DNA of 64,000 bases, taken from NCBI RefSeq assembly GCF_003334355.1, contig NZ_QOWP01000014.1. One strand, given 5' to 3'. A model generated the notes under the pieces. It was not told the DNA's origin. It ran no database searches and worked only from the letters and a program-made list of their open reading frames with translations. The DNA is from Escherichia coli. GTDB lineage: Bacteria > Pseudomonadota > Gammaproteobacteria > Enterobacterales > Enterobacteriaceae. The stretch's first letter is position 1. Each line of letters opens with the position of its first letter. Positions 1,198 to 33,774 of this stretch are shown here, piece by piece. The translations under genes and the position numbers were made by a program.

Positions 1198-1421
1198 GTG
1201 CGGATTCCTGGGGTTAATGGCTATAAGGGTAAGAGCGCAACTCCAGTGACGCTATCATACGCACTAATCAATGCGGCGCAAGACTGCGAAATTGTCTTTT
1301 TTTACGCTACAATCCCATAAATTTACCTGGTAAATAGTGAGCGAACGTTTCATCAATTTCGCTTTCGTGCACTCATTTTTAACGTTTTGATAATCATGAT
1401 GAATTCCCGGGAATATAAATT

Positions 1422-27286: not shown

Positions 27287-29011
27287 TCAGGTTCTCTCCG
27301 TTTTGCTTAACCACATTTCATCCATTCCGCCCCCGCGAATCTGCATCGGGTAGACGTGCTCGCTGCCATCGACGGTAACATCAACAAACACCAGGCGATT
27401 ATTGCGCACCTGTTCCAGCGCCTCGCTAAGTTTGCTTTCCAGCTCATGCGGATGAGAAATCTGGATCCCGACATGCCCATAGGCTTCCGCCAGACGGACG
27501 AAATCGGGTAGCGATTGCATATAAGATTGTGAATGACGGCCGGAATAGATCATGTCTTGCCACTGCTTCACCATCCCCAGATAGCGGTTATTGAGATTCA
27601 CCACCAGTACGGGCAACTCGTATTGCAACGCGGTAGACAGTTCCTGGATGTTCATCTGAATACTGCCGTCGCCAGTGACGCAAACCACGGTTTCTTCTGG
27701 CAACGCCATTTTGACGCCCAGTGCCGCAGGTAAACCAAAACCCATCGTGCCGAGGCCACCGGAATTGATCCAGCGACGCGGTTTGTCGAATGGATAATAA
27801 AGTGCAGCAAACATCTGGTGCTGCCCGACATCGGACGTCACGTAAGCGTCTCCCTTCGTCAACCGCCAAAGAGTCTCGATCACCGCCTGCGGTTTAATCT
27901 TTTCACTGTGAGTGTCATATTTCAGGCACTGACGAGCGCGCCACTGTTCAATTTGCTGCCACCAGTCGCGGATCTCATCCAGCGGTTGATGGGCGGATTC
28001 TTGCGACAAGAGTTCAAGCATTTGTTCGAGGACCTGGCGAGCATCCCCCACAATCGGGATATCCGCAGTCACGGTTTTAGAAATGGAAGTAGGATCAATA
28101 TCGATATGCAGAACAGTGGCATTTGGGCAGTACTTTGCCAGATTGTTCGTCGTTCGGTCATCAAATCGTACCCCGACGGCGAAAATCACATCCGCGTTAT
28201 GCATCGTCATATTGGCTTCGTAGGTACCGTGCATTCCCAGCATGCCCAGTGCCTGACGATGCGTTGCCGGAAACGCCCCCAGCCCCATCAATGAGCAAAC
28301 AACGGGCAGATTCAACGCCTCCACCGTTTCTTTCAACTGCTGATGGCAGCCCGCCGTGATTGCCCCACCGCCTACGTAGACAACCGGTTTTTTTGCCGCT
28401 ACCAGCGTTTGCAGAGCACGCTTAATTTGCCCTTTATGTCCGGTAGTAGTGGGATTGTAAGAACGCATACTGACCGACTCCGGCCAGACATAGGGTAATT
28501 TGTTCGCCGGATTAAGAATATCTTTCGGTAAATCAACGACTACTGGTCCTGGGCGACCACTTGCCGCCAGCCAGAAAGCCTTTTTCAGCACCTGCGGAAT
28601 GTCTTCCGTTTGCTTAACCAGAAAACTGTGTTTAACCACCGGTCGCGAAATCCCCACCATGTCGCACTCCTGAAAGGCATCGTAACCTATCAACGAGGTC
28701 GCTACCTGCCCGGAAAGGACAACTAATGGAATGGAATCCATATAAGCGGTGGCGATGCCAGTAATCGCATTGGTCGCCCCTGGACCCGACGTTACCAGCA
28801 CGACGCCGACTTCCCCGGTCGCGCGCGCCAGGCCATCGGCCATATGCACCGCCGCCTGCTCATGACGAACTAATACATGATCAATACCACCCACGGTATG
28901 CAATGCATCATAAATATCAAGGACTGCGCCTCCGGGATAACCGAATACTTGTTTAACGCCCTGATCGATAAGCGATCGGACGACCATCTCGGCTCCAGAC
29001 AACATCTCCAT
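27287..29011 (-). CDS. ilvI: Acetolactate synthase III large subunit
   Basis: 574 aa from [11 protein letters not shown]; ThDP-binding motifs; track ORF over-extended by 30 codons. Confidence 0.95.
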
Positions 29012-29328
29012 GGCCTGCCTCACTGTTTGACGGAAAAAATGTGTAAAACACATTAACCGTCCGATCTTGCTTAAGCAATTGGCAGCCAGAGACATAAACA
29101 CGGGGTAATAAGAATAAACAGGAGGAAAGGTGAAAAGAAACGATAAAATCCTCCATTACAGAGGATTAAATTGATAATAAATCGGCTGAATCCCACAACT
29201 TACAGCAATTTCTCTATTTTTTTAATTAATCCTAAAATAGAGAGCCCACACATTCAGAATAAAATTCTACATTCAATAAAAAATGCAGAATAAACCAGAC
29301 ATTCATGTCTGACCTATTCTGCAATCAG

Positions 29329-30273
29329 TTAGCGTTTGCAAATTGAGACTAATTGCTCTTCCATCCACTGATGGCCTTTATCGCGCCCGGCAGCTTCATG
29401 CCAGGAGAGATAACAGGTTCTGCTGTTTTGTTTTAACGGCAGCGGTAATACCTGTAATTCTAAGGATTCAGCGAACTCTTCAGCCAGCCAACGCGGCGCA
29501 ATAGCGACCAAATGCGTTTGCGACACCACGCTAAGTACGCTCATCATTGCCATGCCCTGATACGCGATACTGGCTTGCTTATCTACCGTGTCATACCAAG
29601 GTTGACTAAATGACGCGAAACGATCGAGCGAAACCGCCGCATGTTGTTCGTTATAAACATCATGTTTCAGTAACGGGCCCTTAATTGTTGGATGATTTTT
29701 GCTGGCTACCAGCACCATTTCATCTTTAAATAATGGTACGCTGGTAAATTCAGGACGATGGAAGTCTTCATAACTAATCACAAACTCCGTTTCCTGATAA
29801 CGCAGCTGATGTTCAGTGTTCTGATTTAATGAAGACTTGAACATAACATGTATATTTGGCGCAATCTGCTCAATGTGATTATAAATCTGCGAGGTCAGAA
29901 TGCTGTCTAACGGGCTGCAAACACAAAGATGAAATACACGTTCACTGCTCGCGGGTTCAAAACCTGAACCAGGCAATTCATTTTGTACTAGTTGCAATGC
30001 CTGACGAACTGAACCAAAAAGTTGAAATGCGCGAGCAGTCGGTTGAATACCACGGCCATAACGAACAAAAAGCTCGTCATTAAACATCACCTTCAGGCGT
30101 GCAACAGCGTTACTGACCGCAGGTTGCGACATTCCCAGAACATGAGCGGCACGAGTAATGTTTTGCTCCTGCATCACGGCATCGAAAACGGTTAATAAGT
30201 TGAGATCGACCATGCGTAGCTGTGGCTTGCTTAACTCCGCCGTCTCTGGATGATCTGTTTGTACCTCTGGCAT
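29329..30273 (-). CDS. leuO: LysR-type transcriptional regulator LeuO
   Basis: 314 aa from [27 protein letters not shown]. Confidence 0.93.
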
Positions 30274-30932
30274 ACTTAACTCCACTGTCACACTTAACTC
30301 CCTTTCCCTTATTGGAATGCAGAGAAATAATCCTCGAGAATATGATTTATCATGCATATAAAATAAGAAAAAGGAAAATGAGTAAAATTAGGAAAACATA
30401 AAGATACGGGTTCTGATAAAAACAGAATCCATTGCCGTGGAATGAGTCATTTACCACAGCATAATAATCCATAATGTTTTTGTTGCGAAAACAATCTAAT
30501 CATAACTACCGCGAATACTCAATCATCTACAAAATGGATTAAATGTGCTTATTTAATAATTAATTTATATATTTAATGCATTAATTCTTAACATTAATTG
30601 ATCAATAATATTCACCAAATCAATATCAAAAAAAATCGCAAAACATATAATTCAATACAAATCATCAGGATAGGTTTTGCAACGCGTGCATTTTGTCCCC
30701 TTTTTCCTCGTTGATTAGATGCAAAAATTTATGCTGAAATATGTCAACCGATGAAAAGCGTCGGTAGTTAAGCAGAAATTAATATCGCTTACTTTAACCA
30801 CCGCAGCACAATTAGCTAATTTTACGGATGCAGAACTCACGCTGGCGGGACGTTTTTATTGCGTCAGGGTTGACATCCGTTTTTGTATCCAGTAACTCTA
30901 AAAGCATATCGCATTCATCTGGAGCTGATTTA

Positions 30933-31019
30933 ATGACTCACATCGTTCGCTTTATCGGTCTACTACTACTAAACGCATCTTCTTTGCGCGGTAGACGAGT
31001 GAGCGGCATCCAGCATTAA
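30933..31019 (+). CDS. leuL: leu operon leader peptide
   Basis: 28-aa [28 protein letters not shown] with four consecutive CUA Leu codons. Confidence 0.9.
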
Positions 31020-31043
31020 GCCAGCACGCAGTCAAACAAAAAA

Positions 31044-31068
31044 CCCGCGCCATTGCGCGGGTTTTTTT
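31044..31068 (+). terminator. leu attenuator terminator
   Basis: Hairpin cccgcgc/gcgcggg followed by T7, between leuL and leuA. Confidence 0.85.

Positions 31069-31111: not shown

Positions 31112-33774
<2,663 letters not shown>

Follow-up and report, generated by a model that had tools for sequence, protein, structure and literature searches.

The 659-bp segment that separates leuO from leuL, at positions 30274-30932 of the 64,000-nucleotide Escherichia coli stretch analysed here (the window), is with very little doubt the leuO-leuLABCD divergent control region, a regulatory spacer that is shared by the two transcription units and modular in its build. In the scheme proposed here, a left module of about 130 bp would carry the leuO ribosome-binding region and proximal promoter, and a right module of similar length (about 130 bp) carries the leuL promoter, with its strong consensus -35, and the attenuator, with a marbox ahead of them at about -93. 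On the very AT-rich tract between them (about 30410-30800) H-NS, with StpA, would nucleate and polymerise, and the resulting filament would hold the leuO promoters P1 and P2 off in ordinary growth; LeuO would bind a palindromic core at the edge of the most AT-rich part and so regulate its own gene, and BglJ-RcsB would activate P2 in E. coli.

The region has long been known and intensively studied, and the interpretation given in an earlier note on this DNA is supported and was already known. LeuO, a master antagonist of H-NS, turns on genes for CRISPR-Cas, efflux, acid stress and virulence, and the spacer is the site where the expression of leuO itself is kept off; confirming this adds nothing new. 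The one loose end in the region is its deeply conserved, non-canonically placed marbox, a small but testable lead.

Identity and limits of the spacer

The limits of the spacer are set by two start codons. To the left, the leuO coding sequence (29329-30273, minus strand) specifies a LysR-type regulator of 314 aa, and its start codon (30273-30271) marks the left edge; to the right, leuL, encoding the leu leader peptide, occupies 30933-31019 on the plus strand with its ATG at 30933-30935, and leuA begins after it, at 31112. The leuO assignment follows from the open reading frame list, from identity to K-12 and from the RefSeq annotation of strain PSS-12 (NZ_AP027697.1), which places leuO and leuL at the exact flanking coordinates. 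The earlier note had described a 659-bp spacer at 30274-30932 separating the divergent leuO and leuLABCD; its coordinates proved exact by the start codons and the PSS-12 annotation, and open reading frames, K-12 identity and annotation all agree on the divergent arrangement. Downstream of leuO and co-directional with it lies ilvIH (ilvI at 27287-29011, minus strand, from the PSS-12 RefSeq annotation in window coordinates), giving the gene order ilvIH / leuO / divergent leuLABCD.

By tblastn, LeuO is 100% identical to K-12 b0076 over its 314 residues, as is the N-terminus of LeuA to its K-12 equivalent (100%). The counterpart in K-12 MG1655 (83709-84367) is also 659 bp long and differs by four substitutions and no indel (99.4% identity). 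The closest known system is the K-12 leuO region studied by Stratmann et al. (2012) and Breddermann and Schnetz (2016): it is the same locus, of the same 659 bp and with identical flanking proteins, for which P1 and P2, H-NS/StpA, LeuO sites and a BglJ-RcsB box have been described, and from which the window departs only by those four substitutions. They fall at 30335, 30336, 30374 and 30390, two of them between blocks that are conserved in other species. At 30390, inside a conserved promoter block, the window has A and K-12 has C, A being the base found in most other species.

The substitutions at 30335 and 30336 (CG here, GA in K-12) create a CTCGAG (XhoI) site at 30332-30337. The same allele is present in strains PEC1003 and PSS-12 and therefore represents natural variation between conserved blocks. 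Over the full 64 kb, PSS-12 differs from the window by nine isolated substitutions and one 1-bp indel. One of these substitutions, at 30846, falls inside the spacer, where the window has the K-12 base; the sole indel (at about 48841-48846) is one T fewer in the T-run of a hairpin terminator in the araD/polB gap.

Of 5426 complete E. coli genomes, 5400 contain the spacer; the best match per genome has an identity of at least 99% in 2994 and of 95-99% in 2309.

Base composition and physical properties

The earlier note had called the spacer strongly AT-rich with long AT tracts, and by every count it is extreme. Its GC content is 32.9%, against 53.0% for the whole window, and nowhere else in the 64 kb is a stretch of this size as AT-rich: an AT content this high is reached by only 41 of 63342 windows of 659 bp, all starting between 30250 and 30328. 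TpA steps number 60, compared with a window-wide mean of 26.9 per 659 bp, and A/T tracts of at least 4 number 20 where 5.9 are expected. The lowest 200 bp of the spacer have a GC content of 21.5%, and the lowest 60-bp window, starting at 30549, reaches 10%. The 66-mer quoted in the earlier note occurs once, at 30551-30616, with a GC content of 13.6%; it lies within an AT core at 30512-30665, defined by 60-bp windows with a GC content of at most 20% (minimum 10%). The window has 28 intergenic regions that measure 50 bp or more (median 114 bp); the spacer is the longest of them and has the second-lowest GC content, only the 154-bp gap downstream of leuO being lower (31.2%). Intergenic DNA in the window has a median GC content of 43.9% and genes one of 53.7%, so that the spacer lies 11 points under the intergenic median.

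DNA curvature, which had been proposed as a check, neither helped nor harmed the case. The most bent 120-bp segment of the spacer, starting at 30713, belongs to the most-curved 0.85% of the window but is absent from its eight most curved segments. The estimate was obtained with a wedge model (parameters after Bolshoy 1991) and was given little weight.

Conservation across Enterobacteriaceae

To place the spacer in a wider context, one genome per species was scanned with LeuO, yielding 80 loci from Escherichia, Salmonella, Citrobacter, Enterobacter, Klebsiella, Kluyvera, Kosakonia and other Enterobacteriaceae. In 79 of the 80, leuO has a divergent leuA upstream, and a leader peptide containing a run of Leu was identified. 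Spacer length in these 79 species ranges from 567 to 759 bp (median 634), and spacer GC content from 31 to 44% (median 34.4%), compared with a median of 51.8% for the flanking genes; every one of the 79 spacers holds a 66-bp window with a GC content of at most 24%. Low GC is thus not a chance property of one sequence, as it recurs in all 79 other species with a maximum of 44%. High A+T content upstream of leuABCD, conserved between E. coli and Salmonella, was reportedly noted in 1986 by Haughn, Wessler, Gemmill and Calvo.

The sequence itself behaves differently in the centre and at the ends. In a MAFFT alignment of the 80 sequences, mean per-column identity to the window was 0.52; the central 400 bp are poorly conserved, and conservation is concentrated in five islands, at 30275-30297, 30337-30367, 30384-30404, 30802-30822 and 30885-30925. 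In the centre, selection holds length and base composition; at both ends it holds the exact sequence. A centre that keeps its composition while its sequence turns over fits a protein that senses composition and shape, such as H-NS, reading this part of the spacer, whereas conserved ends are expected if these carry promoters and specific operators. Across about 80 species the locus offers a clean illustration of selection acting on base composition and not on sequence.

Silencing by H-NS and StpA and the putative LeuO site

That this is an H-NS-silenced regulatory region, as the earlier note had proposed, is backed by composition, by the comparative data and by published experiments. Silencing of leuO by H-NS and StpA through this region is documented in both E. 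coli and Salmonella (PMC5025477, PMC3950696, PMC6797219, PMC10981669). In E. coli, leuO is silent under laboratory conditions, since two or more promoters are repressed by H-NS and StpA; P1, the distal one, becomes fully active only in hns stpA mutants, P2, the proximal one, is switched on by BglJ-RcsB from a position about 57-70 bp upstream of the P2 start, and LeuO regulates its own gene both positively and negatively (PMC5025477, PMC3950696, PMC6698644). For Salmonella, PMC6463858 summarises work on AT4, a 72-bp AT-rich element of the spacer that acts as a portable silencer and consists of AT8, the H-NS repression element, and AT7, the LeuO derepression element; an E. coli counterpart has been reported. 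The AT core at 30512-30665 is presumed to be the region of H-NS/StpA nucleation and filament formation, and the counterpart of the Salmonella AT4/AT8.

A scan for the H-NS high-affinity consensus TCGATAAATT, allowing up to two mismatches, gave 77 matches in the window. Two of them lie in the spacer, both with two mismatches (30562 and 30596), where the window-wide rate would give about 0.8; there was no enrichment, and this check left the case where it stood. Across the 80 species, a match with at most one mismatch was found in 16 spacers, compared with 11% of shuffled spacers, and 13 of these 16 matches represent a single aligned site, mostly from one clade, which reads TTGATCAATT in E. coli and TTGATAAATT in 13 other species. 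TTGATAAATT is one mismatch away from the high-affinity consensus.

In the middle of the AT core, at 30588-30606, a moderately conserved element, CTTAACATT-AATT(T/G)ATCAAT, was noted; its TTAACA is present in 62 of the 80 species, and in E. coli it includes a GATC (Dam) site, whereas the 13 other species have TTGATAAATT in it.

At the edge of the AT core, positions 30608-30626 hold the 7-5-7 palindrome ATATTCACCAAATCAATAT, with half-sites ATATTCA and TCAATAT around CCAAA. PMC6698644 describes, within LeuO site I of leuO, a 7-5-7 palindrome of 19 bp that is nearly the same as the high-affinity core in cas site II. Between casA and cas3, K-12 has just one perfect palindrome of this 7-5-7 form, ATATTCATACTGTGAATAT, with which ATATTCACCAAATCAATAT shares 15 of 19 positions and 13 of 14 half-site bases. 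The palindrome occurs at the same offset in three other Escherichia species; outside Escherichia it was not recognisable: only 3 of 76 sequences had a match, at differing positions, where chance would give 1.5%. Its place beside the AT core, on the leuL side, recalls the way AT7 adjoins AT8 in Salmonella. Judged from its sequence, 30608-30626 is likely the core of LeuO site I, of the type described by Fragel et al. (2019).

An insertion within this palindrome was encountered in strain PEC1003 (NZ_CP160643.1). The spacer of this strain carries a 768-bp IS1 flanked by a 9-bp target duplication, CACCAAATC, corresponding to window positions 30613-30621; the element lies inside the putative LeuO palindrome at the AT-core edge, and the remaining spacer is identical to that of the window. 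Such insertions upstream of leuO reportedly activate the gene (Klauck 1997; Ueguchi 1998).

Supercoiling and the promoter relay

The earlier note had also linked the spacer to the promoter-relay mechanism. The architecture for it is in place, but the experiments behind the mechanism used topA strains of Salmonella Typhimurium that carry the leu-500 promoter mutation, not E. coli, for which the relay is only inferred. In those strains the relay from ilvIH through leuO to leu-500 was established (reviewed in PMC4264507). Transcription entering the H-NS-bound region relieves leuO silencing, and negative supercoils generated by an upstream promoter 427 bp from the leuO transcription start have the same effect (PMC10981669, PMC6797219). 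The gene order and orientations that permit supercoil coupling are present here, and the leuO/leuA part of the arrangement is kept in 79 species. Since leuO and leuL are transcribed away from each other, activity of either promoter, and transcription of ilvIH, would feed negative supercoils into the spacer, and such supercoils would form the basis of the relay described in Salmonella. By shared architecture, the relay may well operate in the source strain.

One possible, if rather doubtful, explanation is that the spacer serves mainly as a mechanical or topological coupler, a stretch of AT-rich, readily unwound and slightly curved DNA through which negative supercoils made by transcription would pass between ilvIH, leuO and leuL, with protein silencing secondary. 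Such a role would suit divergent promoters about 520 bp apart, the dense A-tracts and TpA steps and the segment at 30713 that falls in the most-curved 1% of the window; the activation of leuO by supercoils from upstream transcription in Salmonella (PMC10981669) and the relay model, as reviewed in PMC4264507, point the same way. The same Salmonella work, however, reads the supercoiling effect as relief of H-NS silencing and not as an independent mechanism (PMC10981669, PMC6797219), and leuO is derepressed in hns stpA mutants with neighbouring transcription unchanged (PMC5025477). The coupler and silencing views are complementary and not exclusive, and silencing by H-NS and StpA, which no observation contradicted, remains the reading preferred here.

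Conserved blocks at the leuO end

The translation-initiation region of leuO (30274-30305, minus strand) is conserved at 0.8-0.9 across the 80 sequences. In it the Shine-Dalgarno unit is duplicated on the minus strand, as GGAGTTAAGT-GTG at 30301-30289 and GGAGTTAAGT-ATG at 30283-30271, the two copies being 18 nt apart and in frame. Initiation at the GTG (30291-30289) could give a LeuO longer by six residues, and the block is conserved across genera.

Upstream of it, a second conserved block (30337-30367, minus strand; leuO sense CTTATTTTATATGCATGATAAATCATATTC) shows a mean identity of at least 0.8 in the 80-sequence alignment and probably lies within the leuO 5' UTR or in a promoter-proximal operator. 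The third block at this end, TCTTTATGTTTTCCTAATTTT (30384-30404, minus strand), was likewise recognised by its conservation and is likely the core of the proximal leuO promoter: TATGTT at 30400-30395 is a candidate -10, with a candidate transcription start at about 30388. The position of this start fits the geometry of the leuO start in Salmonella (PMC10981669), and it agrees with a BglJ-RcsB box centred 57 bp upstream of P2 (PMC3950696). A search for the BglJ-RcsB motif wwTTCykA gave only the imperfect candidates CATTCCAC (about 30443-30436) and GATTCTGT (about 30429-30422), neither of which was assigned. A sigma-70 scan returned fewer promoter-like sites than did shuffled sequences (2 vs 5.4), and its only minus-strand site in the spacer, at 30489-30461, is poorly conserved; the scan was not used in placing the leuO promoters. 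We infer the exact transcription start and -10 of leuO, and equally the position of the LeuO site.

The leuL promoter, leader and marbox

At the opposite end, the leuLABCD promoter (30870-30906, plus strand) consists of a -35 TTGACA at 30870-30875, a 17-bp spacer and a -10 TAACTC at 30893-30898. It lies within a conserved block at 30866-30925 and is conserved in all species aligned. By homology to the Salmonella promoter drawn from cappable-seq data (PMC10268841 Fig. S1), transcription would start at about 30906, consistent with a leader RNA of about 160 nt that ends at the attenuator T-run. The leu leader/attenuator RNA itself (30919-31068, plus strand) matches Rfam RF00512, Leu_leader, over model positions 1-148 with 145.8 bits against a gathering score of 50 (E 2.4e-33); it contains leuL and takes in the last 14 nt of the spacer.

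Ahead of this promoter, at 30806-30820 and in forward orientation towards leuL, lies GCACAATTAGCTAAT, a MarA/SoxS/Rob site centred on about -93 from the transcription start. It is identical to the leuL<>leuO site of ETEC H10407, which was found by MarA ChIP-seq and was scored '+++', the strongest class, for binding in vitro (PMC5684230 Table 1); in Salmonella, all three of MarA, Rob and SoxS bind the equivalent site, GCACAATTAGCTAAA (PMC10268841 Table 1). The marbox was present in 76 of the 80 sequences, with a conservation of 0.87-1.0 at the recognition positions and of 0.3-0.5 directly outside them. In 62 sequences it lies 64-65 bp from the -35; in 10 others the interval is 53-56 bp, shorter by one helical turn. 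More than 400 bp separate it from the leuO promoter.

Like the promoters of mar/sox/rob classes I and II, the spacer has a 15-bp site with the marbox elements (GCAC ... GCTAA) that is bound by MarA in vitro and in vivo. Class I marboxes, however, are in reverse orientation at -53 to -73 and class II marboxes are forward at -30 to -42 (PMC10268841), whereas the leuL marbox is forward at about -93, so that in position and orientation it fits neither class; the Salmonella authors list it under 'Other promoters' (PMC10268841). In the MarA/SoxS/Rob ChIP-seq papers (PMC5684230, PMC10268841) we found no report of an effect of this marbox on leuL or leuO transcription. MarA also binds the yjjP<>yjjQ-bglJ region (PMC5684230), and BglJ activates leuO; yjjP<>yjjQ-bglJ is the other arm of the LeuO/BglJ feedback loop. 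It is conceivable, though on balance unlikely, that the marbox is a boundary or anti-silencing element, or that it ties envelope and oxidative stress to leuO and leucine synthesis. In the boundary role, MarA, SoxS or the abundant Rob at this site would keep the H-NS filament on the AT core from extending into the promoter of leuLABCD. The picture of an AT-rich spacer in the earlier note holds, but the spacer is not featureless: the marbox, the likely LeuO site and the promoter blocks had gone unmentioned.

A natural deletion of leuO was seen in strain FDAARGOS_943 (NZ_CP065615.1), in which an IS1 has taken the place of leuO together with the first 498 bp of the spacer (window positions about 29100-30771). 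In the 161 bp that remain, the marbox and the leuL promoter are intact.

Relation to other silenced loci

The Salmonella relay locus shares with the present one its gene order, divergent promoters, AT-richness, marbox and leuL promoter. The ilvIH-leuO-leuABCD relay of Salmonella Typhimurium and its AT4 (AT7/AT8) silencer were reportedly described by Fang and Wu (1998) and by Chen et al. (2001-2005). Spacers of the S. enterica subspecies measure 645-655 bp, compared with 659 bp here, and their AT core cannot be aligned in detail with that of the window; the LeuO palindrome is unrecognisable in them.

The bgl, cas, yjjQ-bglJ and proU loci likewise have an AT-rich regulatory region whose silencing by H-NS/StpA is lifted by LeuO or by other activators; in cas, the intergenic region has a GC content of 29.5% and a LeuO core palindrome of the same type as the spacer. 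In contrast to these four, the leuO spacer is ancient core genome beside housekeeping amino-acid genes and was not horizontally acquired, and the silenced gene, leuO, itself encodes the anti-silencer.

Coding potential and neutral origin of the spacer

The spacer might also conceal an unannotated small protein or small RNA, its AT-richness being incidental, but this is highly improbable. Sixteen open reading frames of 12-41 codons can be drawn in it, two conserved blocks fall in the presumed leuO 5' UTR, and the small proteins YabR and YacM are annotated in other short gaps of the window. At most 4 of 79 related sequences keep any one of the sixteen frames intact, however, and most of the frames are intact in Escherichia alone, in line with the earlier statement that the spacer holds no credible open reading frame. 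A permissive Rfam scan of the spacer gave only the leu leader and two miRNA matches at chance level (E 0.27-0.63), RNAalifold found no consensus structure for the leuO 5' UTR among 79 sequences (the window's own fold had z = -1.9), and neither K-12 nor PSS-12 has an annotated feature between leuO and leuL.

The two small proteins have 14 residues each; YabR is encoded at 29130-29174 (plus strand), between ilvI and leuO, and YacM at 1353-1397 (minus strand), near guaC. The earlier statement on open reading frames covers the leuO-leuL spacer only and not the gaps that hold YabR and YacM.

A neutral origin of the low GC, as a by-product of relaxed selection or mutational bias or as a foreign relic with no regulatory role, is equally improbable and already largely refuted: the central 400 bp are indeed poorly conserved in sequence and intergenic DNA in the window is generally AT-richer than genes, but length and GC content stay within narrow limits in the 79 species despite sequence turnover, GC lies far below even the intergenic median, the spacer belongs to the core genome of E. 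coli and direct experiments show silencing (PMC5025477, PMC6797219).

Low GC extends beyond the spacer. As leuO itself has a GC content of only about 39-49%, the whole leuO locus stands out as an AT-rich island, bordered by ilvIH and leuLABCD. Downstream of leuO, the 154-bp gap (29175-29328; GC 31.2%) contains, at 29284-29323 on the minus strand, an 18-pair hairpin followed by a T-run, which is likely the leuO terminator.
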